In this document: positions 1,863-62,074 of the stretch, piece after piece | Layout: every line of letters begins with the position of its first letter | Numbering within the stretch: the first letter of the stretch is position 1 | Source: a virus | DNA: 64,000 nucleotides | Virus record (IMG/VR): IMGVR_UViG_3300021493_000001 | Strand: one strand, 5' to 3' | Made by a program: the position numbers and the translations under genes | Notes under the pieces: model-generated | Database searches by the model: none | The model's input: only the letters and a program-made list of their open reading frames with translations | Told to the model about the DNA's origin: nothing

Positions 1863-2193
1863 TGTAATCCTCCCGTATATTAACAATTTTGTAATACTTA
1901 TTCCCTTGTTCATCTTCAGTCATTTCAAATTCAAAGATGTAATGAGGGATTTTAAACATTATTTCTATTATATCACAGCATCGGAATTTTGGATGATAAG
2001 CTGTATATTCAATCGTTTCTTGCCAAGGATTATATTTTGCATCTATAACAATAACTTCAGAAAATAAGGTTTTTAGTTGCTTTAATAGTTCTTTATTTTC
2101 TTCATGAATTGCTTTGCGTAATATTTCTGTTGATACATGAAACTTACCAATTTTTAAATATTTTGTTTGGTGTTCTTTATCATTCATATTCAT
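1852..2193 (-). CDS. hypothetical protein
   Basis: ORF with GGAG RBS. Confidence 0.6.
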   Translation of the reverse strand: MNMNDKEHQTKYLKIGKFHVSTEILRKAIHEENKELLKQLKTLFSEVIVIDAKYNPWQETIEYTAYHPKFRCCDIIEIMFKIPHYIFEFEMTEDEQGNKYYKIVNIREDYNAI

Positions 2194-2197
2194 ACTC

Positions 2198-2773
2198 CTA
2201 TTTCTGTTCTTGATTAATTACTGTTTCGCTATTTAACCATTCAGCCACATACCCTTTATATTTAAAAGCCAAGTCCTTGACTTGTTCTTTATTGAGGTCG
2301 CCACCATCACGGAATAAGGTATATATAATAAATTCAACTTTAGGATTAAAATAGTGCCATATCTTTGCAATATGATTTAGATAATGAAAATACTCATAGA
2401 TATGTTTTTCATTATTCAGGTATTCAAAAACGCCTTCAATATCTTTTGGCCATGAGACCAAATACTCTTCTACAATACTTTGCCCTCTTAAAGGATAAGT
2501 AAAGACTGTTTTAATCCATCTATGAGTTTCACCTAACGCAACTATTATATCAGGCCCCCTTAAAGCTGTGATATAATCCCAGAGTGCTTCTTTGCTATGA
2601 TTTTTACATTCTTCCATAATCTCTATAAAAGTCTTGTCTTTATTTTTCTTGCCCATTTCCCTCTCCTTAAATTTAATATAGCGTGAAGGAGCTGATTGAG
2701 TAGTATGACTTTTGTCTTTAGATAGGTTTATTTTGATTAAATCAGGATGGTATGTGCCTTTATTCTGCACCAT
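2198..2773 (-). CDS. hypothetical protein
   Basis: 191-aa ORF, first gene of the leftward unit. Confidence 0.6.
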   Translation of the reverse strand: MVQNKGTYHPDLIKINLSKDKSHTTQSAPSRYIKFKEREMGKKNKDKTFIEIMEECKNHSKEALWDYITALRGPDIIVALGETHRWIKTVFTYPLRGQSIVEEYLVSWPKDIEGVFEYLNNEKHIYEYFHYLNHIAKIWHYFNPKVEFIIYTLFRDGGDLNKEQVKDLAFKYKGYVAEWLNSETVINQEQK

Positions 2774-2780
2774 TAAAATT

Positions 2781-2809
2781 AAATTATCATGTCATTTCTT
2801 ATTTGTCAA
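2781..2809 (-). promoter_or_regulatory. sigma70-type leftward promoter
   Basis: TTGACA (2809-2804), N17, TGn-TAATTT (2786-2781). Confidence 0.6.
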
Positions 2810-2817
2810 GACCTAAC

Positions 2818-2846
2818 TTGACTTTTTCCTTGATTTGTGTTAACTT
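2818..2846 (+). promoter_or_regulatory. sigma70-type rightward (late block) promoter
   Basis: TTGACT (2818-2823), N17, TGn-TAACTT (2841-2846). Confidence 0.55.
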
Positions 2847-2852
2847 TGATAT

Positions 2853-3104
2853 ATGGCAGGAAAGAAAGCTAAAAAAGACAACAAAGTTTCAAGTAAGCCA
2901 AAGCCCACAGTTTCTCCTTCTAAGCCTAAACCTCAATCTCAACCTCAGCCTAGACCGAAGCCTAGACCTATTAAAACATTGGCTGATGCTTTGAATTATC
3001 TTAAAGTTTCAAGGAAAGATGTTGCAAGAGTGCATGAGTTTGAAGACCGATTTCTAATTGATTTGAAAGTTGGTGGGAGACAGGTTGTAGAGAAGACAAA
3101 ATAA
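2853..3104 (+). CDS. small Lys/Pro-rich protein upstream of terminase
   Basis: KP/QP low-complexity N-half; sits where a small terminase would be, but no homology recognised. Confidence 0.6.
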   Translation: MAGKKAKKDNKVSSKPKPTVSPSKPKPQSQPQPRPKPRPIKTLADALNYLKVSRKDVARVHEFEDRFLIDLKVGGRQVVEKTK

Positions 3105-3112
3105 GATAGGGC

Positions 3113-4675
3113 TTGAGTGATTTAGAGGTGATTGAACTTAATTTTAACAGTAGAGGTTTAGCACCGTCTTTAAGAAAAATTTTTCAAAAGGACCCATTAA
3201 TTTTTCCTGAGAAAGTTCTGGGAGTTACTCTTTGGGATAAGCAGAAAGAAATTTTTAGAGCTATCTATGAGAATGAACGAGTTGCAGTGCCTGCGTGTAA
3301 TCATGCAGGCAAAACTCATACCGCTGCATGTCTAACCCTTGCATTTCTTTTTACATATTATCCTTCTAAAGTTATTACAACTTCAGCATTCAAAGAACAA
3401 GTTAAGGATGCATTATGGAGTGAAATCAGAACTAGAGTGAGATATTCAAGAATATCGTTAATGGAAGAAAAGCATGTAACAACTATGGGAATAAATTTAG
3501 GTCCTGATTGGTATGCTGTGGGATTAAGACCTCAAGACTCTTCTCAAGAGGCTTTTCAAGGAAGGCATAGTCCGAATATATTATTAATTCTGGATGAATC
3601 AAGTGGGGTAGGTGAGAATATTTGGGAATCGGCTGAAGGATTAATGACCTCTGCCAATTGTCATTGGCTTGCACTAGGCAATCCATTTGACCCACTTTCA
3701 CCATTTGGAGAAGCTTGTAATAGTGATGAATGGGTAACTATACATATTTCAGCTTATGATACTCCCAATGTTAAGGCAGGAAGAAATATTTATCCTCGGT
3801 TAATGCCTTGGGATTGGCCTGAGAAAAAGAAAAAGCAGTGGGGTGAAGATAGTGCAAGATACCAAATTAGAGTTTTAGGCCAATTTCCTGAAAGAGAAGA
3901 AGAAAAGTTAATTCCATATTCACTTGCAAAACAAGTATTTGAAAGAAAATATAATCGTTGCACTGATGAGACATTGGTAATTGGTCTTGACCCAGCAGGA
4001 TTAGGAAAAGATAAAACAGTTTGGGTTTTAAGACAAGGCTCATCCATTGTTACAATAAAATGGGTTTTGAATGCAACTGATGAGGCAATTGGAAGAAGAA
4101 CTTTAGAATTAGCAGAGACTTATAGAAGTGCTAACAAACCAACGATTATTAATATAGATGGTGGATGGGGAAAAGGGATATATGAATATCTCAGAAAACA
4201 TGGTAATCCTGAAAAAGTGAAGATTAACCTAGTTTTTTTATCTTCTAAACCAGAAAATGATGAAAATGAATATTATAATTTGAGAACTCAAGTTGGTTTT
4301 AGATTGAAAGAGGCTATAGAAAGAGGATTATGTTTATCTCCATCAGCTAGAATAGTAAAGGATGCTTGGCTATCTGATATAACTGCTATAAAAGTCATTG
4401 AAGACCCTAGAACTGGGAAAAGAAAGTTAGAGAATAAAAGAAAGCTGAAGAAGCGGTTAAAGCGTTCTCCTGATTTTTTAGATGCTACATTACTTAGCTT
4501 TGTTTCAAGTTATAGAACTCCTCCTGCTATGGTAACTGTTTCAGAATTTCAATATAAAGAAGCAAATAAAGAAGTGATTGATAATTCTATGTTTCCATCT
4601 ATGATGCACCAATTCAAGATTAAAAGAAGAAATCCAATATTCTTTTTCAGAAATAATATCAGGAGGTTCTCATGA
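3113..4675 (+). CDS. terL: terminase large subunit
   Basis: Walker A ACNHAGKT, Walker B LLILDE, coupling motif GNP, RNase H-like nuclease IGLDPAG and SPDFLDA. Confidence 0.95.
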   Translation: MSDLEVIELNFNSRGLAPSLRKIFQKDPLIFPEKVLGVTLWDKQKEIFRAIYENERVAVPACNHAGKTHTAACLTLAFLFTYYPSKVITTSAFKEQVKDALWSEIRTRVRYSRISLMEEKHVTTMGINLGPDWYAVGLRPQDSSQEAFQGRHSPNILLILDESSGVGENIWESAEGLMTSANCHWLALGNPFDPLSPFGEACNSDEWVTIHISAYDTPNVKAGRNIYPRLMPWDWPEKKKKQWGEDSARYQIRVLGQFPEREEEKLIPYSLAKQVFERKYNRCTDETLVIGLDPAGLGKDKTVWVLRQGSSIVTIKWVLNATDEAIGRRTLELAETYRSANKPTIINIDGGWGKGIYEYLRKHGNPEKVKINLVFLSSKPENDENEYYNLRTQVGFRLKEAIERGLCLSPSARIVKDAWLSDITAIKVIEDPRTGKRKLENKRKLKKRLKRSPDFLDATLLSFVSSYRTPPAMVTVSEFQYKEANKEVIDNSMFPSMMHQFKIKRRNPIFFFRNNIRRFS

Positions 4676-5212: not shown

Positions 5213-6523
5213 TTGCCATATTTTATCAAAAAACCAAGTCCCAAGCCTGCAAGATTTTTTGAAGCCACCAAGCTTTCTTTGCCAGGCGGTGAAGAAACAA
5301 AAGAAGAAGATTGGGCTGGGTGGAGAAAAATCTCTGGTGTAGGATTGTTAAGAGAGTTACGCACCGATGTATTTGTTAAGATGAGTCGTTTAGCCAAATG
5401 GCTTTATGACTCAAACCCCTTAGCCAAAAGGATAATTGAATACATCAAGAACTTTGTGGTAGGAGAAGGTATTTATTTTGAGACAACCGATAAACGAGTT
5501 CAAGAAGTATTAAATGCGTTCTGGTTTGATGATGTAAATAATTGGCCTCTTAAACAGCATGATAGAATTTTAGAGTTATGTCTTTATGGTGAGTGTATTT
5601 GGCCTGTTACAGTAAACCCTGCTAATGGTCATGTAAGATTAGGATATATTGACCCTTTGGAAGTTAAAAAGGTTGTGCCTCATGAAGAAAATTGTTTGAT
5701 TTTGGATAAGATTATTTTGTATGCTCCTCTCAATAAGAAAAACGGTAAAAAAAGAGAACTCAAGATAATTCGCAGAGATGAAAATCCAAATAGCGATACT
5801 TATGGATACCTAACAGGTGAAACCTTTTTCTTTGCCATTAACAAAGTTTCAAATGCGACAAGAGGTGCAAGTGATTTGCTACCCTTGATAGATTGGATTG
5901 ATTCTTATGACCAGTTTTTATTTACAAGACTTGAAAGGCAAATGAATATTAATAATTTCTGCTGGGATGTAACTTTAGAGGGTGCAGATGAACATGAAAT
6001 AAAACAATTCCTTGATAATTTACCACCTCCTTCGCCTGGGACAATCAGAGCACATAACGAGAAAGTTAAATGGGATGTAGTTGCTCCTAAGCTTGAAGCA
6101 AGAGATGCAAATCAAGAAAGCCGTTTGATAAGAAATCATATTCTAAGTGGTGCAGGTTTCCCACCTTATTATTTTGCAGATACAGAAGGAGTAAGGGCGG
6201 TTGCTTATGAGCAGGCTTTTCCTACCGAAAAGATGCTTATTACCAGACAGAAATATTTTAAAGCAATGATTGAATATGTATTCAATTTTGTAATAGACCA
6301 AGCAATTCTTCATAAAAGATTACCAAGGAATGTTAATCGTAAGTTTGAAATAATTTTTCCTGAAATATCATTAAGAGATATAGAACGGTTGAGTAGAGCA
6401 TTTAAGAATATCACCTTATCAATAGAGCATTTGAAACAAAATAATTTAATTTCAGATGAAGAAGCTAAAAAGATTATAAGGAATTTATTGAGCCAGATGG
6501 GTGTCAATATTGACAATGAGTGA
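5213..6523 (+). CDS. portal protein
   Basis: position after terminase; 436 aa; typical segments NPLAKRIIEYIKNFVVGEG, LCLYGEC and RGASDL. Confidence 0.85.
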   Translation: MPYFIKKPSPKPARFFEATKLSLPGGEETKEEDWAGWRKISGVGLLRELRTDVFVKMSRLAKWLYDSNPLAKRIIEYIKNFVVGEGIYFETTDKRVQEVLNAFWFDDVNNWPLKQHDRILELCLYGECIWPVTVNPANGHVRLGYIDPLEVKKVVPHEENCLILDKIILYAPLNKKNGKKRELKIIRRDENPNSDTYGYLTGETFFFAINKVSNATRGASDLLPLIDWIDSYDQFLFTRLERQMNINNFCWDVTLEGADEHEIKQFLDNLPPPSPGTIRAHNEKVKWDVVAPKLEARDANQESRLIRNHILSGAGFPPYYFADTEGVRAVAYEQAFPTEKMLITRQKYFKAMIEYVFNFVIDQAILHKRLPRNVNRKFEIIFPEISLRDIERLSRAFKNITLSIEHLKQNNLISDEEAKKIIRNLLSQMGVNIDNE

Positions 6524-7361
6524 TATGAAAAAGAAATGTAATTATATATTGAGTAAGACTGATAAAGCAAATATTGTAAAGGAATATTTAAAAGGCTTGA
6601 GTTCAACCAAGTTGAGTTTGAAATATAATGTAACTCCATCAGCAATTTTGAGCATTCTCAAAAATAGAAAGATTAAGAGACGAAATAGGTCGGATGCTGC
6701 TCGAAAATTAAGTCTTGATATTAATGCATTTCAGAATTCAAATAATGAAGAAGTTGCTTATTGGGCTGGATTTCTTTTAGCAGATGGTTCAGTAATTAAG
6801 ATTGATAATAGTTATCAAATTTCCTTAGTCTTACATCAACGAGATAGAAACCATATTGTAAAATTCAAAAGATTTTTAAAGTCAGAGCATAAGATTTCGA
6901 AAAATCGAGTCTTTTCTGTTTTAAATGTAAGGTCGAGAAAATTAGGATTAGACTTGATTAACTTGGGAGTTATTCCAAATAAGACTTATAAAGATAGCAA
7001 AATTCATAAACAGTTATTAAATAATCGGCATTTTTGGAGAGGAGTGGTAGATGGGGATGGCAGTCTTTGTTTTTGTAATAAATATCCTGTTTTAAATTTA
7101 ATGGGAAGAGAGAATTTGCTTCGAGAATTTTTGATGTTTATTCAATATTTCTTTCCAATGATTAATACTAAAATTATACCGATTAAGAATGAAGTTTGCA
7201 GAATCTTTTTCCGAGCTAATACAGCAAAAAGGGTTACCTATCTTCTATATCATGAAGCAAATGTATTTCTCGATAGAAAAATGGATATGGCATTGAAAAT
7301 CTTAAATTGGGTAAGTAAGAAAAATCAAAATATGTTACTGAGCCAAATGGCGATGAGATAG
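6516..7361 (+). CDS. LAGLIDADG homing endonuclease with N-terminal HTH
   Basis: two motifs AYWAGFLLADGS and HFWRGVVDGDGS. Confidence 0.9.
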   Translation: MSDMKKKCNYILSKTDKANIVKEYLKGLSSTKLSLKYNVTPSAILSILKNRKIKRRNRSDAARKLSLDINAFQNSNNEEVAYWAGFLLADGSVIKIDNSYQISLVLHQRDRNHIVKFKRFLKSEHKISKNRVFSVLNVRSRKLGLDLINLGVIPNKTYKDSKIHKQLLNNRHFWRGVVDGDGSLCFCNKYPVLNLMGRENLLREFLMFIQYFFPMINTKIIPIKNEVCRIFFRANTAKRVTYLLYHEANVFLDRKMDMALKILNWVSKKNQNMLLSQMAMR

Positions 7362-7382: not shown

Positions 7383-10300
7383 GTGCGTATAACTGAACTT
7401 CATTTAGAGCAATTTAAAAAAGAAGGGGTTGATTACGATATTAAACATGCCAAGACCAGATGGAGAGAATTGCTGGCGGACATTAGGTATCTTTTCAATA
7501 ATGCTTTACCAAGGATTTGGAAAGGCGAGAAATGGGGTGATTGGCAGGAAGAAGATTGTTTAAGATATGGAGGTAAGATTATAGATGCCCTTCGTTCTGT
7601 TTATTTTCCTTTGATACCACCCTCTAAAGATGACCCAAGATATAATACAAGCTACTGGAAGGCTTATCGTAAGGCTGAAAAGAAAGGTTATATCAAATCT
7701 AAACCACCTAAACTAGAAGAAGTATCTGAATGGGATAAGAAACGCAAAGAGATAATCAAAACCTCTTTAGAAGAAGCAGAAAGAAAAATAGATGGTCTTT
7801 ATTTAACTTATCCACATGGAGAGTTATTTTGGACTAAAGAAAAAACTTTGTTAGTGAAGACTAGAAAGTTTGATTTATCCAAGCCTCACTATCTAATTGA
7901 TGATGGCTTTTGCTATGGGATTATCTCGTTCAAAGAACCTAAAAGAATTACTAAAAAGCAGTTCTTTACAGAGGATTTAAAGAAAAAGCATCGCATCCTA
8001 GATACAGAAGCTTGGCAGTGGTGGAGAATGTCAAGAGACAATGCAGTTGAGCCTGAACTTTGGGCTTATGAGGTTAAAAAATTTGAACCGTTTGAAATAC
8101 CTGAAAGAGTGAAAATACCAAAGGGAACACAGGTTATAGTTGATGCAGATAACATTGAATTTGTAGGAAAGGATGAAGAACAACCTGCAAGGATTGATTG
8201 GCCTATAATGGCTACCAAGGAAGCAAAGACTGATTACATTAAATTCTATGGCACTAAAGGATATATAGAAGAAGAAAACAATGAACATAAATATCATACC
8301 TGTATTTTGTTATCCTTAAATGACACAAATATCTTATTGGATTATGGTGAGAGGCATCCTGAAGAAATAAAGGAAAGAATAGATGTGATATTGAACTCGC
8401 ATCGGCACATTGACCACATCTGTCCTGAAATATCAAGCTTTGCTTGTCCTTTATATATATCAAAAGAAACTTTGAATAGAGTGGATTTTTCTTTACCCGA
8501 AGATATAAGAATTTATGAAGCTAGAAAAGCATTTAGTATTGGTAATATAAAAATTATTACTTATCCAGTTTATCACTCCATCCGTGCTCCTATGCACATT
8601 TTCAAGATTGAGACAGATAACCTTGCAATTGGAGTAATGACTGATTTTTTAGCCTTTGAAGAAGTAGAAGATGAAGAGTTTTTCTATCCAAATCTAGACA
8701 TAGTCATAATAGACGGTAGTAGCATTACGAAAGATTTAAGAAGATGGAAGGAAGACCATAACTTAATATTTGGTCATAAAAGCGTAATTCACCAAATTGA
8801 AAGAATTAGAGATAGATGTGAAAAAAATCCAATAATAATCCTCACTCATATTGGGCGTGAAGGCATAGAGTGGGGAGACTTACAAATATTACAATATTTA
8901 CATGAAAGATTTGCTGGAATGCACATATATATTGCCAAAGATGGCAGTGTATTTGACTTAAAAACAAGGCGATTTACTGAGGCATTCAAAGGCGAGCAAA
9001 TATGCAAAGATATTGTTGCAAATCTTCCTTCTTTTACATGGATACCTGAATTTACAAGCATTACAGGCTCTACCTTATTTACAAAAGACCATGCACCAAG
9101 AGACTTGGATGTAATGTGCAAAGCAGAGGAGATAAATGGAAAGTGGTATATTCCTATAGATACTTCTCTTTTGCTTAAATTGCAAAGAGCCTATCAATAT
9201 GCAACAAAGAAAGTCTTAGGCAAGGCAATCAAGCCTGAGTTCCCACCTCCAGCATTGATTGGAGCTAATTGGAGTTCTATACCTGCTTATGATTTAAAGC
9301 TTGTGCCTAGAAAAAATCCAGAAGTAAGAAGGACAGGAGAAGAGGAGTTTGAAGAAAAGGTTTATGGAGTAGATTTTAAGGAAAAGTTAAGGTTACGCAC
9401 CAAATCCAAAGATATTGAAAAAATGGCTCAGCAATCCTTAGAAGAGGATAAAGTCAAACCACTTCGTTTCTTTATGCCTCTTAAACCAATACGAGTTCAA
9501 GGAAAGCATGGAGAAAGGAATACACCAGAAAGGCTTGTAGAGTTATTTGAGCCACAGCATTACCCAGTTTATAACTCGGTAAAGAGAGATGGATTCAGGG
9601 TGCAAATTCATGCAGACGGGGATAAAGTTGTAATTTATTCAGAAGATGGCAATGATATAACAAAGCAATTACCTACAATTGTTGATGCAGTTAAAAGACT
9701 TAAAGCAAAATCAGTTGTTTTAGATGCTGAAGTTGAGTTATGGGAGAATGGATATCATCATCCACGAGAAGCAGCCATTGCTAAAATTCATTCTAAAGCA
9801 ATAGATGATAAGGATTTGATTGCTAATTTATTTGATTGTATATATCTAAATGGCGAAGATTTGCATAAAGAGCCATTTGAAAAGAGATGGAAAGCATCAA
9901 ATTCTCTTGGCATCAAATATTCAAAAGAAACTAATTTAAACCCAGAAGAAAAACTTAATATTATTCCCCATATCTTATGCAAAACTCCAAAAGAATTGCT
10001 TAGAGAAACAGAACGCATGAGAAAGGTTAAATCAAGTGAAGGCTGTGTAGCTATTGCCCATAATGCAACCTATCCATTAGATGGCAAACCAGATGACAAT
10101 TCATTTTGTAAGTTTCACAATAATGTAGTTATAAGGGGAATAGTAATTGAACCTGTGCAGACTAAAGTAAGCACGGTATATAATTTATCCTTTGGCTGTT
10201 TAGCAGGTAAGCATGAAATATTAAAGAAAGACCAGACAGAAGTAGGTCCTTATGAAAAAGTTTTAACCATAGGAAGCACTTTTGCTGCACCTTATGTAAA

Positions 10301-12413
10301 ACGAGGTAGTGTAATTGAGGTTGAATGTGAAACAATTAACCATATCATCCATGAAGACATTGAAGGCAATCCAGTAGAAATTACAGCTTGGGCACCTAGA
10401 TTTATGCGGGTAGTGCCAGGGGCTAAACCAGATAGCATAGATGACATTCTTAGAAAAGCTAGAAAAGAAAATCATGTTTTGCAAGAGAAAATAATCAAAT
10501 CAGACGGCACAGTAATATATAAGGAAGCAAGAAAAGAGCTTTATTGCTTTCTTACAGAAGAACCCACATTAACAAGCAAGATTAGTGATAGATTTGGTGC
10601 AGCTAAGTATGCTATATTCTTTGAACCTGCTACTTATCATTTTGAAGCAATAGATTTGTCTAATTTTGTAACAGGAATTGAAATTACAGATTTAATAAAA
10701 GAACGCAGAGCTACAGAAGTTGTTACAAACCAGATAGGAAGATTTAGCAGAGAGGCGTTAGACAAGGCTGGAATTAAGATTGTTTTTGCCCAAGGAAAGG
10801 TTGAGGATTATTTAAATAAAAAACTAGGTGAAAGCCCGCTTTTAAAAGAAGCTATATTAAGAGAGCAAGACCCGTATATGCAATATTTTGACGAAGATAA
10901 AGAGCATAAATTTTGTGCCCAACATCATTACAGGTGTGCTTTGAAAGAAGTTTTAAAAGAAATAGGAAGAGAAGATTTATGGCCTAGAGAAGAACCGAGT
11001 CCAGAGGAATGGGCTAAATTATGGCCTAAGTGGTGGCCTGAAGTAAGAAAGGTATTGGAAGATTATTATGATACCCATCCCAATTTTGAACATTCACCTA
11101 GTGTCCATTGTGATTTACGCATGGAAACAGATACTAAAGGCGTGTTAATTGGTTTTACTCTTAATGACCAAATTAAAGACCGTCCACAATTTTTTCCTTT
11201 GAGATTGAGAAAATCTGAAGGTAAATATAGTGCAGAAGAATATGATGATGACCCTGAGAATTGGAAGATAAATTATAATACTGGTGAGTTTGCTAAAAGA
11301 GTTAAAAAGGGAGGAGCTAAAGCACCTGTTTCTTTGATAAGTGAAAGAAAGGCACAAGAACCAAGTAGTTGGTTAACTTACGAGGGCTTTCAATCTCCGA
11401 GAAATGTGGCTGCTACTAGATATGGCTATGCTTTATTGCATTTGATAAGGAAATTGGGCATTGTTGAGACGGGCATGCAGCTCAATTATTTCCATGAATA
11501 TTTCTTACATTTCCCCAGAGATGGTAATAAGCCTCCATTTTATTGGAGATTGATGTTTAGGTATTTAAAGCGTCCTTTTAAGGAAGCAATTGAAAAGCAA
11601 GATTATGAAACATTATCAGAGTGTGTATATCTTGAAGATGGTGAGGATTTAGAAGAAGGAATTTATTTAGAAGCAGAAAGAATTATACCTGTTTCAGAAG
11701 AGGGGTGGGGGCGAAATCAAGCAGGCTGGTTATGTATATATGGAGTTGATAAAACTCCTTACATTATTTCAGACCGTGCAGTTAAGTTAAAACGCATGTG
11801 CCCTTATCCTTACAGTGCTTTACCTAGATATATCAAAAAACAAATACCGCCTGAGTTTCATTACTGGAAAGAAAAAGACATGAAAAAACGCATTGAAATA
11901 AGGGATGCTTTGGTCAAAGCTATCAAGGAAAAGAAAGTTATTTTGAAAGAAAGCATTGCAAGAGATTATATCCTCCAATTGCATTACAGCGAGCCAGCCG
12001 AATTAATTAAAAGGAAGTCCCCAGCTCACAAACATTGGGATTTGAGAATTGATGGAGACCTAAAAAAGAAAACAGGCCATATATTTCATGCAGTTTTAGA
12101 ATTAAACCCACTTGAAGTTGACTCTACCTCTGCATATTTAAAGAAGTGCAAAGGAGATGAAGGTGGAGTAAATTGGATGGAAGTTGGCAAAGATAAGACA
12201 GTTAAGTTTACTAAAGGATATGGAACATTTGAGAAAAACGAACCTGGGTATGTTAAAGCATTGGACTGGGGTAGAGTATTAGTTTTAGAAGACTCACCCT
12301 TATTTAAAAAGTTTCAATTTAAAGGCAAACAATTAAAAGGAATTTGGATAATGCATAGAAGTAGTCCTGAAACTGATATTTGGACTTTTGAGAGGTCAAA
12401 GGACATTGGTTAA
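7383..12413 (+). CDS. 1676-aa multidomain protein: ASCH-like, MBL-fold hydrolase, nucleotidyltransferase, ATP-dependent DNA ligase, NifX-like and two LigD-type 3'-phosphoesterase domains
   Basis: HRHIDH (MBL); ITGS...RDLDV (Pol beta NTase); ligase motifs KRDG, VLDAE, FDCIY and EGCV; DRFGAAKY...IGRFSREAL (NifB/NifX family); QHHYR...HCDLRME and QLHY...HWDLRID (phosphoesterase). Confidence 0.85.
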   Translation: MRITELHLEQFKKEGVDYDIKHAKTRWRELLADIRYLFNNALPRIWKGEKWGDWQEEDCLRYGGKIIDALRSVYFPLIPPSKDDPRYNTSYWKAYRKAEKKGYIKSKPPKLEEVSEWDKKRKEIIKTSLEEAERKIDGLYLTYPHGELFWTKEKTLLVKTRKFDLSKPHYLIDDGFCYGIISFKEPKRITKKQFFTEDLKKKHRILDTEAWQWWRMSRDNAVEPELWAYEVKKFEPFEIPERVKIPKGTQVIVDADNIEFVGKDEEQPARIDWPIMATKEAKTDYIKFYGTKGYIEEENNEHKYHTCILLSLNDTNILLDYGERHPEEIKERIDVILNSHRHIDHICPEISSFACPLYISKETLNRVDFSLPEDIRIYEARKAFSIGNIKIITYPVYHSIRAPMHIFKIETDNLAIGVMTDFLAFEEVEDEEFFYPNLDIVIIDGSSITKDLRRWKEDHNLIFGHKSVIHQIERIRDRCEKNPIIILTHIGREGIEWGDLQILQYLHERFAGMHIYIAKDGSVFDLKTRRFTEAFKGEQICKDIVANLPSFTWIPEFTSITGSTLFTKDHAPRDLDVMCKAEEINGKWYIPIDTSLLLKLQRAYQYATKKVLGKAIKPEFPPPALIGANWSSIPAYDLKLVPRKNPEVRRTGEEEFEEKVYGVDFKEKLRLRTKSKDIEKMAQQSLEEDKVKPLRFFMPLKPIRVQGKHGERNTPERLVELFEPQHYPVYNSVKRDGFRVQIHADGDKVVIYSEDGNDITKQLPTIVDAVKRLKAKSVVLDAEVELWENGYHHPREAAIAKIHSKAIDDKDLIANLFDCIYLNGEDLHKEPFEKRWKASNSLGIKYSKETNLNPEEKLNIIPHILCKTPKELLRETERMRKVKSSEGCVAIAHNATYPLDGKPDDNSFCKFHNNVVIRGIVIEPVQTKVSTVYNLSFGCLAGKHEILKKDQTEVGPYEKVLTIGSTFAAPYVKRGSVIEVECETINHIIHEDIEGNPVEITAWAPRFMRVVPGAKPDSIDDILRKARKENHVLQEKIIKSDGTVIYKEARKELYCFLTEEPTLTSKISDRFGAAKYAIFFEPATYHFEAIDLSNFVTGIEITDLIKERRATEVVTNQIGRFSREALDKAGIKIVFAQGKVEDYLNKKLGESPLLKEAILREQDPYMQYFDEDKEHKFCAQHHYRCALKEVLKEIGREDLWPREEPSPEEWAKLWPKWWPEVRKVLEDYYDTHPNFEHSPSVHCDLRMETDTKGVLIGFTLNDQIKDRPQFFPLRLRKSEGKYSAEEYDDDPENWKINYNTGEFAKRVKKGGAKAPVSLISERKAQEPSSWLTYEGFQSPRNVAATRYGYALLHLIRKLGIVETGMQLNYFHEYFLHFPRDGNKPPFYWRLMFRYLKRPFKEAIEKQDYETLSECVYLEDGEDLEEGIYLEAERIIPVSEEGWGRNQAGWLCIYGVDKTPYIISDRAVKLKRMCPYPYSALPRYIKKQIPPEFHYWKEKDMKKRIEIRDALVKAIKEKKVILKESIARDYILQLHYSEPAELIKRKSPAHKHWDLRIDGDLKKKTGHIFHAVLELNPLEVDSTSAYLKKCKGDEGGVNWMEVGKDKTVKFTKGYGTFEKNEPGYVKALDWGRVLVLEDSPLFKKFQFKGKQLKGIWIMHRSSPETDIWTFERSKDIG

Positions 12414-12615
12414 GTTTAATTTTAAAAGATTTAAATGTCCAAAGGATAAGCACTTCTTATTTGCTGAAGACATTAAGGATGGTGTGATAGAGGTATATTG
12501 TAAATACTGTAAAACTACATACCGCATGGCTTTTAAAGAAGGTAAACTTATAAGTTTGAGTGAAATTCAGCAAAAGAAAGTTGAGTGTCTTGACAAAATT
12601 AGAAATAAGGTTTAA
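12406..12615 (+). CDS. Mu Com-like zinc-finger protein
   Basis: FKCPKDKHFLF...IEVYCKYCKT, similar to the Com pattern RC..C...L.......EIKC.RC. Confidence 0.65.
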   Translation: MVKFNFKRFKCPKDKHFLFAEDIKDGVIEVYCKYCKTTYRMAFKEGKLISLSEIQQKKVECLDKIRNKV

Positions 12616-12618
12616 CAT
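12590..12618 (+). promoter_or_regulatory. sigma70-type promoter for the capsid gene
   Basis: TTGACA (12590-12595), N17, TAACAT (12613-12618). Confidence 0.6.
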
Positions 12619-12714: not shown

Positions 12715-15048
12715 ATGGAAAATTTCAAACCAAGTGATTTTTTTGAAACCTTCCAAGGTAAGTTTCTTCCTTTACTTGAATCGGCCAGAGGTGATGAATG
12801 GGATGTTGTTTTAATTGAGGCAGGCCGAAGTAAGGGAGGAAGTCAAGGTCAAATCTTATATCCTGAAGAAGTCCTGAAAAGAGCAGTTCCTCTTTTTGAG
12901 AATGCCAAGTGTTATGCCTTTGAATTTAGTGGTCAAATTTATGACCATCTTCCAGAGAATATCAAACAAGCAGTGCCTCAAGGTTTTGCGAAAAATCTTG
13001 TAGGTTATTTTACTTCTCCTAAATTAAAGAAACTTCCCAACGGGAAGAAAGGTATAGTTGCAAAATTTCATGTCATAGCCGATTGGCTTAAATCTGCCCT
13101 TAAAAATGCTGGGAACAAACTACCCGAACTGCTGGGCTTTTCCATAGATGCAGAGGGAATTGTTGATAGAAGTCAAGGCATGGCTTTGTCAATTGATAGA
13201 GTGGATAGTGTTGATTTAGTTACATATCCAGCAGCAGGAGGCAGATTTTTAAGAATGGTGGCATCTAGGCTTGCTGCCAGTATTGGAAAGCAAGAAGAGG
13301 GGCAAAAAGAAGGATTAAATAGAAAAGGAGGTAACAGCATGAACCCTATGTTACTGGCAATCAAAGGATGGAAAAGTGGTCTCCAAGAGGGACAAGCGGT
13401 AGAAGCTACTGATGATGTAGTTTCTGCAATCTTTGGCAATGTATTGGATGAGGAAATAATAAAAGAGTCTCGTGACGAATTAAAGGAGATTATTACTCAA
13501 TGTGTTGGCTTTTTAAGTGAAGGAAAAGAGGAGCTAGCTGAAGCCCTTATTACAGGGATTGTTGAGGCTAAGAAGAAGAAAAAGAAAAAAGACGAGTATC
13601 CTACTCCTGCGGAAAAATATCCAGCACCTCAAAAGGCTTCTACTCAAAACGAGCCTAATGGTGATATGGAAGAGGCTAAAAAGAAAAAGAAAGATGAATA
13701 TCCTGCTTATCCTGAAATTCAGAAACAATCTCAAGACTTAGAAGCTCTCAAAAATGAGATTACCAGATTGAAATTAGAAAAATACTTAGAAGAAGCTCTT
13801 AAAGAGTCTGGTTTGACCAGTGTATCTAAAGAGCAAATCAGAAACATGCAGTTTAGTTCTACTGAAGACATAGACAAGGCTATCGGAAATATGAAAGATT
13901 TAGAAGCCAAGTTTATGCAGGAAGCTGGAGTTTCAAGCAAGGTTGAAGCGGGCAATACAGAAGGTGAAAAAGTATTGCAAATGATTGAGGATGTATTAGA
14001 GGGTAAATCTCATAGCATCAAAGAGGCTTATATCAGGTTTACTGGTGATAGAAAGGTAACTGGTTTAATTAAGGAATGTGCAGGAAGGGGTAAAGCAAGG
14101 ATTACTGAAAGCTTGACAACCTCTGATTGGGCAGAAGCTTTAGGCGATACTTTAAGACGGAAACTTATAAAAGAATATAAGGTATCTGGATTAGATGACT
14201 GGAAAAAGATAGTATCTGATATTGTGCCTTTACCTGATTTTAGAGACCAGCACTGGATTAGATTAGGTGGGTATGGTGAGCTTCCTTCTGTATCTCAAGG
14301 TTCAACCTACACAGAACTTACCTCGCCAACTGATGAGGAAGTGAAGTTATCCGTAGGTAAATATGGTGGCCTTGAATCGGTCACACTGGAAATGATAAAG
14401 AATGATGACATTCTTGCAGTTAGACAAATCCCTAAACGGTTAGCAAGAGCTGCTGCACAGGCTCTCTACAATGCCATATTTGATGATATTTTAAAGGATA
14501 ATGCAACCATTTATGATAATGTTGCTTTATTCCATGCTAGCCATAGTAATTTAGGTTCTACAGCTTTATCACCAACATCCTTTATGGCAACCAGAAAAGC
14601 GATGGGACAGCAGACTGCTTATGGAAATAGTGAGGAGTATTTAAATCTTTATCCTAAATACTTGATTGTGCCACTTGACCTTGAAGATACAGCATTTAAG
14701 CTCTGTCATTCACCTGTGTTTGTAAACACTGCAACATATTATTCTGGTGGTGGTGCATCAGAAGCTGCAACTACTCCTAATATTGTGCCTCAGAAATTTA
14801 AAACTGATTATATCGTAGTGCCTAGATGGACAGATGCTAATGATTGGATTGCTGTGGCTGACCCGAATATGTGTCCTACAATTGTTGTTGGTTTCTTGGA
14901 TGGCAATGAAGAGCCTGAAATATTTATTCAAGACCAGCCTTCAGTTGGTAGCTTATTCTATGCTGATAAAATTGTTTATAAAATCAGGCACATTTGGGGT
15001 GTAGCTGTATTTGATTATAGGCCATTTTATAAACATGCTGTAGGTTAA
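12715..15048 (+). CDS. prohead protease-scaffold-major capsid (Mu gpT-like HK97 fold) fusion
   Basis: N-terminal protease-type region (GFSIDAEG, SVDLVTYPAAGG); charged scaffold; capsid region from ESLTTSDW to YKIRHIWGVAVFDYRPFYK. Confidence 0.9.
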   Translation: MENFKPSDFFETFQGKFLPLLESARGDEWDVVLIEAGRSKGGSQGQILYPEEVLKRAVPLFENAKCYAFEFSGQIYDHLPENIKQAVPQGFAKNLVGYFTSPKLKKLPNGKKGIVAKFHVIADWLKSALKNAGNKLPELLGFSIDAEGIVDRSQGMALSIDRVDSVDLVTYPAAGGRFLRMVASRLAASIGKQEEGQKEGLNRKGGNSMNPMLLAIKGWKSGLQEGQAVEATDDVVSAIFGNVLDEEIIKESRDELKEIITQCVGFLSEGKEELAEALITGIVEAKKKKKKKDEYPTPAEKYPAPQKASTQNEPNGDMEEAKKKKKDEYPAYPEIQKQSQDLEALKNEITRLKLEKYLEEALKESGLTSVSKEQIRNMQFSSTEDIDKAIGNMKDLEAKFMQEAGVSSKVEAGNTEGEKVLQMIEDVLEGKSHSIKEAYIRFTGDRKVTGLIKECAGRGKARITESLTTSDWAEALGDTLRRKLIKEYKVSGLDDWKKIVSDIVPLPDFRDQHWIRLGGYGELPSVSQGSTYTELTSPTDEEVKLSVGKYGGLESVTLEMIKNDDILAVRQIPKRLARAAAQALYNAIFDDILKDNATIYDNVALFHASHSNLGSTALSPTSFMATRKAMGQQTAYGNSEEYLNLYPKYLIVPLDLEDTAFKLCHSPVFVNTATYYSGGGASEAATTPNIVPQKFKTDYIVVPRWTDANDWIAVADPNMCPTIVVGFLDGNEEPEIFIQDQPSVGSLFYADKIVYKIRHIWGVAVFDYRPFYKHAVG

Positions 15049-41123: not shown

Positions 41124-41777
41124 ATGGAAAATAAAAGAATAATTTGTATTAGTGACCTTCACATTCCTTACACCAGCCAATACTTCATACCCTTTGCCGA
41201 TTATGCCTGTAAAGCTGATAAGGTAATTTTTAATGGTGACACCTTTGACTTATTAAAATGTTCTGTAAAGGAAATTAAAAATTGCTACATGGGGCAAGAG
41301 TTAATAAAGGCAGTTAAGAAAGTTGTAAAGAAGACTGAGGCAATTTTTATAGTAGGTAATCATGATGAAGAACTAGATGAGAAACTTCCTAAGTTATTAG
41401 ACATGGAAGTCATCACATTTCCATTCTATCGCATGGGCAGGATAGGCTTTGTGCATGGTTATCAGTTTGACCCTCTTTGCAAGCATTGGAATTGGCGATT
41501 ATTATCAAAGTTTGCACCTTGGTTTTTCAACCCACCCAGTGAATGGAAGCTAAGAGATAGGGAAAAATGGAAAGAAAAAATCGGACAGATATATGCTGAG
41601 GCCTTTTCTTTCTTAGAGAAAGCTCATTGGTGTAGAATATTAGTTATAGGGCATACTCATTATCCGTCTGTTCATACTTTGGAAACAGGCCAGAAATTGG
41701 CTGATTGTGGAGACTGGTTAGATAGTAGAAGTTGGATAGAGATTGAAAGAGGTAAAGTAGAAGTTAAGACATTATGA
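41124..41777 (+). CDS. calcineurin-like metallophosphoesterase (LpxH-like)
   Basis: SDLH, GDTFD, GNHD, HG, GHTH and GDW motifs. Confidence 0.85.
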   Translation: MENKRIICISDLHIPYTSQYFIPFADYACKADKVIFNGDTFDLLKCSVKEIKNCYMGQELIKAVKKVVKKTEAIFIVGNHDEELDEKLPKLLDMEVITFPFYRMGRIGFVHGYQFDPLCKHWNWRLLSKFAPWFFNPPSEWKLRDREKWKEKIGQIYAEAFSFLEKAHWCRILVIGHTHYPSVHTLETGQKLADCGDWLDSRSWIEIERGKVEVKTL

Positions 41778-50303: not shown

Positions 50304-51341
50304 TTATCCTTCCTGTCTGGTTGAGGAGACGGATTGCTTCCTAGCTACTCTCTCGGCAAGAAGTTTGATATTAATTGCTCCAATTATATCAGCATCTTCC
50401 TTATGCCCACAGCCAATACAATGAAACAATTCTCCTTGCCGATTCGCTTTATCAGTTAATCCACATAACGGGCAAGTAATGGAAGTATTACATGGATTAA
50501 CCTTTATTACCCCAAAACCTTTGAGGCTTGAAAGCTCCATCAATTTCTTTGCCAACCATTTATATGGCCAATTATTATTATCTCTCCTAAATTTTTTAGT
50601 TCTATTTTTCTTGCCTTTAAACAATAAATCCTCAACAGCAAAATCAGTATCAGGATAAAGCTTTATTAGCTCTTTAGCATAGTGATTAAGCCATTGTTTA
50701 GTAGGTGATAAACAATGCTTATAAGTCCTCCATTTCGTTCTTATTTTTAAGCCTTTCAATTCTTTACCTAAAACTTTACCATCAGAAGTTACAATCGGTT
50801 TATTTAAACCTACATCAATGCCGATAATATTTTTATTCTCTTGTTTAATTTCGGGAAACTCCACAAAGCATTGCATATAATAATTGCCATTGATTTTCAA
50901 TAATTTAAAGCTCCTTCTTAATTTTCCTTTATTAACTGCTTCGTTAAAGATTTTAGTCCGTTTACAAGGCAGAATTATCCTTTTTCTTGGTGTAGTAGAA
51001 ATTACTTTAAACCAAATATTGAACTCCTTTGTTTTAAATTCAGGAATAATATAGGCACTAAACTGATTTAAATCTATTTCCTTGCCTTTGAAATATGGCC
51101 TTTCCTTTTGTTTGGTTTTTTTTGCACCTTTAACTATTTGCCAAGCTTTTTGAGAAGCATCCCTAACAAGTCTTCCACCCCTGCAATATTCTTTAGGAGG
51201 ATATGAACCTTTTATGTCTTTAAATGTCCAAAACAGCTTTATTTTGTGATTTACTTGGTCTTGCCAAAAAGCAATAAGTTTATTTAGTTCCTTGATTTTA
51301 TTTTTATTTGCATAAATTTTTAGTTTGTAAGATTTAATCAT
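50304..51341 (-). mobile_element. tnpB: TnpB RNA-guided endonuclease (IS200/IS605/IS607-type), no transposase
   Basis: RuvC-I GIDVG, RuvC-II VEDL, zinc finger CPLCG...CIGCG, RuvC-III DADIIGAINI. Confidence 0.92.
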
Positions 51342-53589: not shown

Positions 53590-54147
53590 CTATTCATTGC
53601 ATACCCAGCTTTTAATCGTTCTCTCGTTGCCCAAAAAATTTATTTTTATATTATTCAATGCCCATTGATTAACAGCTATTGCTCCTAAAGAAGCAACAAG
53701 GCAAATAAAAGCCTTTGCACCACGCCAAGTGCAAATATCAAATCCGTCTTGTGCTTTTTCAGGTTTAAATTCTTTATCCCAAACTACCTCAAATGTTCTT
53801 TCTGCCGAATAGGCTATATGAATGGCATGAGGGCAAGATATTAAGGCTCGGCTTTCAGCATTATCAAAACAATCCAAGCAAAGGTCAAATTGGTCTAATG
53901 CTGGTTTTGTATCAATTTTAAGTTTTTGAGCTTGAGTAATTATTCCATATTGGTCATATAAATTGAGCTGTAAGGCTTCACTTTTATACAATCCTATTTG
54001 AGAAGGTCTAAACCATTGATTAGGAATATTCCTAGTTTCAACTTTATCATAATCAAATAGATAGTATCCCCAATCTGGATGAGCACCAACCAAAATATAA
54101 GCTAAATTGCTACCCAATGCACCACAGCCAAAAATAGCTATTTTCAT
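53590..54147 (-). CDS. ThiF/MoeB/E1-like adenylyltransferase
   Basis: GCGALG, DYDKVETRNIPNQ, K and DCFDNAESR; candidate catalytic Cys in FDICT; start moved to ATG 54147 behind GAGGT. Confidence 0.9.
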   Translation of the reverse strand: MKIAIFGCGALGSNLAYILVGAHPDWGYYLFDYDKVETRNIPNQWFRPSQIGLYKSEALQLNLYDQYGIITQAQKLKIDTKPALDQFDLCLDCFDNAESRALISCPHAIHIAYSAERTFEVVWDKEFKPEKAQDGFDICTWRGAKAFICLVASLGAIAVNQWALNNIKINFLGNERTIKSWVCNE

Positions 54148-54149
54148 TT

Positions 54150-54581
54150 TTACCTCACTACATAATCTAAATGAAAGCACATTTTCAATCCCTTACAAAG
54201 TGGCTCTTGAAATTCGGGAGAAGGCAAAATTACATTTTTTAAATAGTCTCCAAAAATATCATACACACCAGTAAATATAGAACCTTCATACTTAAAAACA
54301 AAATCTCCAGATTTAGGTTGATATACAGTAAAGAGTGAATGATGAGGTGCAAATGCTAATTCAAGTGCTTCATAAAATTCATTGTCTATATTACTCAGAC
54401 TAACTCCTATTTCAGACGAATGAGTATGAATTACAATCCAGTCTTGGGGATAGAGTTGATGCAGTTTCCACCATTCTAAAAAATCAAATTTTACAGAGGC
54501 ACTATTGCCAATTTTAATTTGGACAAAATTCCTAAACGCCCCTTCAGTGCCTAAAATTACACCTACTTCTTTAAATGCCAT
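54150..54581 (-). CDS. JAB/MPN+ metallopeptidase
   Basis: N-terminal Glu (FKEVG) and JAMM motif HTH-x8-SNID. Confidence 0.75.
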   Translation of the reverse strand: MAFKEVGVILGTEGAFRNFVQIKIGNSASVKFDFLEWWKLHQLYPQDWIVIHTHSSEIGVSLSNIDNEFYEALELAFAPHHSLFTVYQPKSGDFVFKYEGSIFTGVYDIFGDYLKNVILPSPEFQEPLCKGLKMCFHLDYVVR

Positions 54582-57276: not shown

Positions 57277-57352
57277 TGGCCAGCTAAACGGGACTTGAAC
57301 CCGTAACCATCAGCTTTTGGAGCTGATGCCTATCCAATTGGGCGATTAGCTT
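57277..57352 (-). tRNA. atypical 76-nt tRNA-like RNA (Trp-like body, anticodon register ambiguous CCA/CAA)
   Basis: acceptor AAGCTAA/TTAGCTG, G73 and encoded CCA; D loop AATTGG; anticodon stem TCAGC/GCTGA with loop TCCAAAA; T arm ACGGG-TTCAAGT-CCCGT. Confidence 0.8.
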
Positions 57353-60832: not shown

Positions 60833-62074
60833 TTAAAATAACTCCTCTAATTCTTTTGCTTTGGTATCAATGGTTAAATAAATTTCCGTTGCCTCTTCTT
60901 CATTTGGGATATCATAAATACTGTTGTATCCCCTTTCTTTCAAAACCTCATTTACCAACTCACGGTCATAGTTTGATAATTGTTCTTCTAACTCTACAAG
61001 CCACTGTGCTGGCTGAGCTTTCTTTTCTGGTTTAGTTTTTTTAGATTTTGGGGAAGGAGTAGCAGGCTTATTTTTTGCTTCCCATTGTTTAAATTTGACT
61101 TCAAACCTATCCATATTCTCCATGCTTTTCTTTTTCACATATTCCACAGAGCAATTAACATGGTTTGCTATGACTTTAACATATTCTTCTACTTTTTGTT
61201 TATCCAGTCCTTTTTCAGCAATTATGTCTTCAAAAGATATTACTCTTTCAGGTTCTGGAGCTTGGTTTTCAATTTGTTTTGGTTTTTCATCCTTTTTTTC
61301 TTTGCTTTTTTTAGCTTCTATATCAATTACCTTCCCTTGGAAGGTTACTTCTTCCTTTTTAGGTTCTTCTTCAATATTAGGCAGTCCAAAATCCTCTTCC
61401 TCTTCAGAGATTGCCAATTCTAGTTCTGGTGTTTTTGGTTTCATTTTAAGCATCTTTAATATGGCACTTTTCCGCATCATAGCTTCAGGCCACAAATGCC
61501 AAGGGCTATCTTTACGACCTGATTGTTCAGCCTTTTGATAAGATAAAGACATTTTTCTCCGTTTTTCAATTTCTTCCATTCTGATAATATCAAAACTTTC
61601 TTTATCATCCTTTCTCCATACAGCATAAGCTAAATAAGGTTTACCTGGGTTTTTGGGTGCTGGTTTATGATGCACATAAGCATCAGTGCCCAGTTGATAA
61701 TCAAACTTATCATTCTCATAAACCACATGAGCTTCCACTTCAGCTCCCGTTACTCTGTAAATTAGCTCAATTAATCCCTGATAACCTCTTTGAGCATTAC
61801 ATTCCAAAGGACGCCCAGGTTTTTTATTGTTATGCCTTGGTATTAGGTAAACATTGTCTCCCCCAGGCAGTAAACCCCACTCCGCACACTTTAGGAGTGC
61901 ATTCAATAGACTTTCAGGCGTGCATTGCTGTAATTGTGGGTTCTTAAATAGAGCATTCCAGAAAGCGGCAATCAAGACATCCTTTTTTATCCACTTAGGT
62001 AATACTTTTAACTTTTCACTTGTTTCAGGTGAAACTAATTTGGCCTTGATGACTTCTAATTGATTTTTTTTCAT
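60833..62074 (-). CDS. recT: RecT-family single-strand annealing recombinase with charged C-terminal extension
   Basis: LQQCTPESLLNALLKCAEWGLLP...YLIP...GYQGLIEL...EAMMRKSAI. Confidence 0.9.
   Translation of the reverse strand: MKKNQLEVIKAKLVSPETSEKLKVLPKWIKKDVLIAAFWNALFKNPQLQQCTPESLLNALLKCAEWGLLPGGDNVYLIPRHNNKKPGRPLECNAQRGYQGLIELIYRVTGAEVEAHVVYENDKFDYQLGTDAYVHHKPAPKNPGKPYLAYAVWRKDDKESFDIIRMEEIEKRRKMSLSYQKAEQSGRKDSPWHLWPEAMMRKSAILKMLKMKPKTPELELAISEEEEDFGLPNIEEEPKKEEVTFQGKVIDIEAKKSKEKKDEKPKQIENQAPEPERVISFEDIIAEKGLDKQKVEEYVKVIANHVNCSVEYVKKKSMENMDRFEVKFKQWEAKNKPATPSPKSKKTKPEKKAQPAQWLVELEEQLSNYDRELVNEVLKERGYNSIYDIPNEEEATEIYLTIDTKAKELEELF

Follow-up and report, generated by a model that had tools for sequence, protein, structure and literature searches.

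A giant ligase-phosphoesterase protein in the head module of a hydrothermal-vent virus, possibly packaged for DNA end repair

Why would a tailed virus keep, among the genes that build its head, a single reading frame that strings together enzymes of DNA repair? The question is raised by the IMG/VR virus record IMGVR_UViG_3300021493_000001, a stretch of 64,000 nucleotides (the whole stretch of DNA that was analysed, hereafter the window), and specifically by an open reading frame (ORF) for a protein of 1676 amino acids (aa). The source is a virus from hydrothermal-vent metagenomes, and the surrounding genes (terminase, portal, capsid precursor, tail) identify it as a tailed one. An initial annotation, made from the letters of the sequence, had listed the enzymes in this ORF and proposed that the protein is packaged and injected with the DNA. 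We suggest, with a probability of roughly 0.55, that it is a polyvalent head-module protein, in which a LigD-like end-repair core (a ligase and two 3'-phosphoesterase, PE, domains) is joined by lineage-specific accessories, and which would be packaged, cut and ejected. The giant ORF and the parts of its protein are as follows (aa numbers refer to the giant protein):

7383-12413, plus strand: giant ORF (P0001), 1676 aa, uninterrupted, GTG start
7383-7766, plus strand: N-terminal helical domain, aa 1-128, matching no family on record
7803-8165, plus strand: ASCH-like beta-barrel, aa 141-261, by VIA fold matches
8217-8951, plus strand: metallo-beta-lactamase (MBL)-fold phosphodiesterase, aa 279-523, RNase Z/ElaC/PhnP-like, with HxHxDH
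8988-9452, plus strand: conserved region, aa ~536-690, with GS-x10-DxD at aa 562-576; candidate minimal nucleotidyltransferase (NT)
9453-10502, plus strand: predicted ATP-dependent DNA ligase, adenylation and OB domains, aa 691-1040, by Pfam and alignment to the Protein Data Bank (PDB)
10566-10820, plus strand: predicted NifX/Nitro_FeMo-Co-like domain, aa 1062-1146, Pfam PF02579
10902-11570, plus strand: PE1, aa ~1174-1396, LigD-type 3'-phosphoesterase domain with a helical insert
11694-11942, plus strand: conserved inter-PE region, aa ~1438-1520, with the family motif DQTPYVLS..RAV...PP.G.SALP
11955-12407, plus strand: PE2, aa 1525-1675, LigD-type 3'-phosphoesterase, retaining H-W-D-L-R

The ORF is read directly from the sequence, with a purine-rich stretch upstream of its GTG start, and it is no assembly accident, because the same protein recurs on independent metagenome contigs at 100%, 95% and 94% identity. 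More distant relatives (38-49% identity) lie on further contigs. Sequence words of the giant gene occur in the runs of many studies of hydrothermal vents and marine sediments, and two runs other than the source contain 61-69% of them. Below, relatives are numbered P for proteins and L for the contigs or genomes that carry them.

The C-terminal part provides the end-repair core. Its AlphaFold2 (AF2) model, built from 23 sequences, is good (predicted local distance difference test, pLDDT, 83), and in a Foldseek search against the PDB its only significant matches were seven LigD 3'-phosphoesterase chains, all on aa 1525-1675. PE2 superposes on 3p43 with a VIA Z of 15.6 (root-mean-square deviation 2.2 Å, 120 of the 124 residues of 3p43 aligned), and the family profile reaches 3p4h over the same region (E 4.1e-6). 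The PE1 sub-alignment gave chance matches only against PDB sequences; PE1 was therefore assigned through PE2 and through the relatives. The two domains are homologous (hhalign probability 97.3%, E 1.9e-11), and Pfam LigD_N matches at the PE1 position in five of 40 relatives (best E 1e-6). The PE1 motif H..R...H.D.R shows no variation among the 40 family members aligned, and in the lineage of the giant protein a helical insert of about 55 aa separates its two His motifs. The catalytic motif of PE2 is not conserved family-wide, and H..H.D.R is present in the PE2 of the giant protein. In the giant protein itself PF13298 (LigD_N) finds no match, even at E<=10 on isolated PE segments, and thus the two domains form a divergent branch of the superfamily rather than typical members. 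Both are confirmed as LigD-type PE domains, as the initial annotation had it.

The ligase and the NifX-like domain, also named there, hold as well. Homology confirms aa ~691-1040 as a predicted ATP-dependent DNA ligase of the Lig1/archaeal type, with 73.4 bits for Pfam PF01068, whose cut-off is 26.2, and an alignment with Thermococcus DNA ligases over both the adenylation and the OB domain (9dfa, 3rr5, 4eq5). That alignment includes K734, the lysine of the motif I KxDG, and K734-R-D-G is invariant in five relatives. The 4eq5 alignment extends to aa ~1024, and a motif-VI-like P-R-F-x-R stands opposite L-R-F-P-R; the N-terminal DNA-binding domain of Lig1-type enzymes is missing. The segment that follows (Pfam envelope aa 1064-1146) is likewise confirmed by homology as a putative NifX-like domain, PF02579 scoring 28.5 bits against a cut-off of 26.3 and the family profile matching 1rdu (E 3.8e-6). 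This domain is duplicated in a 49%-identical relative (P0006, L005:2392-7626).

The N-terminal half is less uniform. The AF2 model of aa 1-690 is of moderate quality (mean pLDDT 58, five sequences). The helical domain at aa 1-128 reaches pLDDT 63-92, and no fold match for it surfaced in searches with this model, the MBL domain filling both lists; an Atlas search with aa 1-275 gave scores of 0.80-0.81, a lead only, with ASCH in 16% of members (score 0.80). The MBL domain itself is confirmed as an RNase Z/PhnP-like hydrolase at aa ~279-523: with 27.2 bits, Pfam Lactamase_B_3 exceeds its cut-off of 24, the HxHxDH noted at the outset is intact as HRHIDH at aa 340-345, and the model, of moderate pLDDT there, matches RNase Z, ZipD, ElaC and PhnP structures (Foldseek E 4e-6 to 6b9v; VIA Z 9.7 to 2cbn).

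Two further proposals of the initial annotation stood in part. For the ASCH-like domain the support stops at the fold: aa 141-261 of the model matches five ASCH-family structures (5guq, 2kku, 1wk2, 9kyf, 6kir) with VIA Z of 5.7-6.9, the best (6.9) to 5guq, in a range below 8 that can stem from a common fold, but Pfam ASCH (PF04266) finds no match in the giant protein, isolated segments included. A relative (P0163) has a weak Pfam ASCH match at the corresponding position (E 0.033). Taken together this is an indication at the level of the fold, short of proof. The Pol-beta nucleotidyltransferase keeps its motif, the G-S-x10-D-x-D (here GS-x10-DLD) being invariant in five relatives, with a candidate third Asp that is not, and three relatives show weak DUF6932 matches there (E 0.0023-0.07). 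However, aa ~536-690 found no Pfam match to a Pol-beta nucleotidyltransferase (isolated segment, E<=10), nothing in the PDB by profile search at E<=10 and no usable match in the Atlas, and its pLDDT lies below 50. We therefore regard this identity as a motif-only, unverified lead.

The wider family shows which of these parts are conserved. A profile of aa 1155-1676 recovers 888 clusters (50% identity) at E<=1e-3, of which 211 remain at E<=1e-30, and most members that carry the PE-PE module are multi-domain proteins of 600-2200 aa. A Pfam scan of 40 members gave the following census:

DNA ligase: 27 of 40 members
Dam methylase: 9 of 40 members
LigD_N: 5 of 40 members
Prohead protease: 4 of 40 members (three S78_2, one S78)
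UPF0020 methylase: 3 of 40 members
AAA: 2 of 40 members
UDG: 1 of 40 members
C5 methylase: 1 of 40 members

Thus the predicted ligase together with PE1 is the conserved core of the family, as judged from these comparisons. Around it the architecture is fluid. The giant protein has at least seven domains, and relatives add, lose, permute or split them: a Dam methylase is inserted in a linker of P0005, the order is permuted to MBL-ASCH-N-ligase in P0010-P0012 and others, and P0008 (L007) stops after PE1, the remainder (the equivalent of aa 1429-1676) being a separate gene of 249 aa. The MBL domain is degenerate in P0009, with its motif lost, and missing from most of the wider family. The window version is the longest single-chain form, with MBL, ASCH-like and NifX-like accessories.

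The most telling result on architecture is the fusion to prohead proteases. In four relatives (P0052, P0055, P0109, P0021) the PE-PE module stands directly ahead of a prohead protease in the same polypeptide, and in three others (P0163, P0164, P0167) it is the N-terminal domain that stands directly ahead of an XkdF protease. Fusion to MuF, portal or capsid-processing peptidase is an accepted argument for packaging into the head (PMC9503650; PMC5512222).

Inteins mark several of the same domains. P0004 (L008:6001-12099) carries one within the MBL HxHxDH motif (NSH|C...N|CHIDH), P0007 one in the N-terminal domain at the conserved G-N|S-G-Y-P site (GN|C...N|SGYP), and the ligase domain houses one in P0010 and P0012, that of P0010 containing a LAGLIDADG domain. 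The usual targets of inteins are conserved sites under functional constraint; their presence in the MBL, N-terminal and ligase domains suggests that these sites are under selection and argues that the domains are active, as predicted. The portal gene of L003 carries an intein too.

The position of the giant gene is the second line of comparative evidence. The genes around it in the window are:

3113-4675: large terminase, a window gene
5213-6523, plus strand: portal protein (phrog_10963, 1.1e-39)
6501-7361, plus strand: free-standing LAGLIDADG-type endonuclease ORF, 286 aa (phrog_4645; near-threshold Pfam LAGLIDADG_3)
12388-12615, plus strand: small zinc-ribbon ORF, C-P-x-x-x-H ... C-x-x-C, overlapping the end of the giant gene
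12715-15048, plus strand: protease-scaffold-major capsid precursor, 777 aa, with a lysine-run scaffold

Tail genes follow the capsid precursor. The slot between portal and protease/capsid that was first reported is correct as to position, except that the LAGLIDADG ORF intervenes after the portal gene. L006 and L008, relatives with 94-95% identity, lack this ORF and have the giant gene immediately next to the portal gene; the ORF looks like a recent homing-endonuclease insertion. A family member stands between portal and protease/capsid in the window and in L006, L008, L005, L007, L001, L003/L004 and L011, and one follows the portal in the archaeal virus ANMV-1 as well. At least eight divergent viral contigs share this post-portal position, which persists in sequences as distant as 24-27% identity (ANMV-1). 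On L011 the portal is followed by the ligase protein, a PE-PE-protease, an ORF of 200 aa and an HK97-type capsid. The fusion of protease, scaffold and capsid in one ORF is also found in L005, L006, L007 and L008, and L006 and L008 keep the zinc-ribbon ORF as a gene of 69 aa. Ahead of the capsid gene, at 12590-12618, is a TTGACA-17-TAACAT site; sigma-70-like sites are not enriched in the window (66 versus 74±8.5 expected).

A third line of evidence comes from the linkers. The pattern hydrophobic-x-Glu-[Ala/Ser] occurs at nine sites in the giant protein, eight of which fall in linkers, which make up 19% of its length, and the ninth at the entry of PE2. Linkers were defined independently of the pattern, as stretches with AF2 pLDDT below 50 or gaps between Pfam or PDB envelopes. 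When residues were shuffled separately within linkers and within domains, 1.57±1.21 linker sites were expected against the 8 observed, a number reached in 0 of 5000 shuffles. Five control patterns with another P1 or P1' residue, and the pattern without its hydrophobic residue, showed no concentration in linkers. The sites mark the borders N/ASCH, MBL/NT, ligase/NifX and NifX/PE1, the end of PE1, the place of the gene split in L007, and the PE2 entry, and sites recur at the same borders in the relatives of 38-49% identity, whose linkers are otherwise poorly conserved. The predicted cuts would fall behind Glu131, 533, 1048, 1150/1156, 1401, 1430 and 1523 of the giant protein, and behind Glu437 of the capsid precursor. 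The prohead protease of T4 requires Glu at P1 and a hydrophobic residue at P3. In the capsid precursor of the window there are 11 such sites versus 3.0±1.6 expected, mostly in the scaffold part, and a site S-[IL]-[KR]-E|A-Y-I-R is conserved directly ahead of the capsid domain in four relatives. These patterns suggest that the giant protein may be cut within the prohead at the motif sites, which is a well-motivated prediction and not a finding; the protease needed for this presumably comes from the 777-aa precursor, whose N-terminal protease part covers about aa 1-195.

From these observations we infer the following course of events. The giant protein would be made alongside the late head genes and incorporated in the procapsid, where the prohead protease would probably cut the hydrophobic-x-Glu|Ala/Ser sites in its inter-domain linkers. 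The pieces would then leave the capsid with the DNA and enter the new cell, in which the PE and MBL domains would clean blocked 3' ends and the ligase would seal nicks or join ends before viral genes are expressed; the NT region, as a candidate only, might add nucleotides as an extra step. The packaging proposed in the initial annotation is thus supported comparatively but unproven: the conserved position, the protease fusions and the motifs at domain borders argue for it, but the MuF domain that usually occupies this place is not there. As to purpose, circularisation of the genome by end joining is a speculative candidate, and repair of cuts made by restriction or Cas nucleases is speculative too. 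Repair of nicks and abasic-site breaks that thermal or chemical damage leaves in virion DNA may be at least as plausible as either, because of the vent habitat and the UDG domain in one relative.

Several points weigh against this proposal. MuF (PF04233) has neither a Pfam nor a PHROG match in the giant protein (E<=1 and E<=0.1, respectively), and membership of that family was rejected; the giant protein shares only the usual gene position of MuF. No Ku-like end-binding partner turned up among the approximately 20 window ORFs scanned, a scan that was not exhaustive. The protease of the window is fused to the capsid protein and not to the giant protein, so that incorporation rests on analogy with the relatives. 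A protein of 190 kDa, or its fragments, would need to pass through portal and tail. The cleavage motif is short. By comparison with what we take to be the catalytic residues of Pseudomonas aeruginosa LigD, the family motif E-P-x-x-W in PE1 seems to replace the second His/Tyr pair; in that case the two might not share the same chemistry. Finally, ANMV-1 stands alone among 50,697 deposited phage genomes in carrying the module, and the family has no cultured member.

The alternative that survives best is a late cytoplasmic repair enzyme that is never packaged and fixes replicated or concatemeric DNA for the terminase, its place in the operon being a matter of timing only. Many phages do need a ligase for their replication or packaging substrates, and no other ligase was seen among the window ORFs scanned; the want of a MuF or any capsid-targeting domain in the giant protein and the free-standing C-terminal gene of L007 would suit such an enzyme as well. 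We nevertheless consider it unlikely, given that several relatives have a prohead protease fused directly to the PE-PE module or to the N-terminal domain, that the post-portal position is kept over very divergent viruses, and that protease-site-like motifs are concentrated in the linkers.

Less likely again is that the protein is packaged as a polyvalent counter-defence factor whose main job is other than joining, its MBL domain degrading cyclic-nucleotide signals in the manner of Apyc1, its ASCH domain binding modified nucleic acids, the methylases of its relatives protecting DNA, and ligase and PE serving as one anti-restriction tool among others. Apyc1 structures do occur among the MBL matches (7u2s, Foldseek E 1.4e-3; 7u2r, Z 6.9) and P0008 has a faint match to PF23023, but the best MBL matches are to RNase Z, ElaC and PhnP. 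Similarly, 13 of 40 relatives carry Dam, C5 or UPF0020 methylases, and polyvalent proteins typically mix such activities (PMC5512222); yet the MBL domain, degenerate in one relative and absent from most of the family, is no part of the core, which is formed by ligase and PE1, with PE1 residues invariant in 40 of 40 members. That the domains are largely non-catalytic, building blocks of head, scaffold or ejection channel derived from repair enzymes, is very improbable, for although PE2 has lost its motif in parts of the family (including ANMV-1) and MBL in P0009, ligase motif I and the PE1 H..H.D.R are invariant, HxHxDH is intact in the giant protein, and inteins target the ligase and MBL motifs of relatives.

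How does the preferred reading, a packaged end-repair protein, relate to known systems? The closest enzymes are bacterial LigD and archaeal PE proteins (3n9b, 3p43, 3p4h, 5dmp). LigD likewise unites ligase and PE in one polypeptide, H..H.D.R is common to LigD and both PE domains of the giant protein, and PE2 superposes on 3p43. In contrast to LigD, which consists of PE, LIG and POL and acts with Ku, the giant protein is viral, belongs to a head module and carries two tandem PE domains C-terminal to its ligase; it lacks an AEP-type POL domain, no Ku turned up beside it in the ORFs scanned, its PE1 holds the insert of about 55 aa, and it has MBL, ASCH-like and NifX-like parts in addition. According to Pitcher 2006 as cited in PMC12848934, the mycobacteriophages Omega and Corndog use a phage Ku and the LigD of the host to circularise their genome. 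By that account their incoming genome depends on end joining of the non-homologous type, as may hold here too, but with their own Ku and a host LigD, whereas the window virus itself encodes ligase and PE, in its head module, with no Ku detected.

The nearest concept described is that of the polyvalent virion protein (PMC5512222). Such proteins are, like the giant protein, large, multi-domain products of late virion genes, with variable architecture, methylase partners and fusions to head proteins, and are expected to work as the DNA enters or immediately afterwards; P1 DarB and MuF-fused effectors are the experimental anchors. The family described here differs in being anchored to a prohead protease or to the post-portal position and not to MuF. 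The 2017 survey by Iyer, Burroughs, Anand, de Souza and Aravind mentions ligase only as RNA ligase, and LigD, ASCH and metallo-beta-lactamase not at all (PMC5512222). Our literature searches turned up no ligase or LigD-PE packaged by phages, nor any description of such a cargo.

The one deposited relative, the ANMV-1 'ATP-dependent DNA ligase' (AJP62006.1, KP703175), has the same ligase-PE-PE core directly after the portal gene, at 24-27% identity, but is only 866 aa long, lacks the N-terminal, ASCH-like, MBL and NifX-like parts and has lost the His motif of PE2. The ANMV-1 gene at 1913-3193 (L009, KP703175.1) is annotated as 'MutT-like phage hydrolase', probably wrongly, since its matches are to portal proteins (phrog_146, E 2e-30). 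Hints towards archaea as hosts are indirect: ANMV-1 itself, the archaeal-virus-like XkdF proteases of relatives, and an Alba-domain gene (L003:5815-6057) between terminase and portal of a related virus, which hints that some members of the family infect archaea. Elsewhere, the BFVD viral structures gave no match at E<=0.001, and a profile search of genome contigs found only a 116-aa PE fragment in a metagenome-assembled genome of Elusimicrobia, which is uninformative.

Other features were noted in the window, the first of them within the structural block and present also in L006:

15526-16791, plus strand: sulfotransferase-methyltransferase fusion (Pfam Sulfotransfer_3 and Methyltransf_11)
41124-41777, plus strand: calcineurin-like phosphoesterase
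50304-51341, minus strand: TnpB-like ORF with a Cas12f1-like TNB domain
53590-54180, minus strand: ThiF-family E1-like ORF
57277-57352, minus strand: tRNA-Leu(CAA)
60833-62074, minus strand: RecT

The candidate cleavage rule offers biochemistry a direct and cheap prediction, and the ligase and PE domains of a vent virus may serve as thermostable enzymes. A family of 888 clusters with next to no representation among cultured phages, or in the viral structure library, points to a blind spot. The packaged enzymes known from phages act by modifying the host or by protecting DNA (Alt, P1 DarB, N4 vRNAP, MuF-fused toxins). A packaged ligase with end cleaners, if true, would be a different strategy, in which the virus brings its own break-repair machinery. 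It is a tentative suggestion, falling somewhat short of even odds, that a large and mostly uncultured group of tailed viruses, apparently common in vents and sediments and possibly archaeal, carries such an autonomous DNA repair kit in its capsids, with MBL, UDG or methylase modules according to lineage, loaded by way of the prohead protease, cut at linkers and delivered with the genome. If so, it could account for the lasting infectivity of virions that spend long periods in sediments that are hot or reducing, for the closure of incoming genomes whose ends are damaged or non-cohesive, and for the tolerance of some viruses to restriction or Cas cuts.

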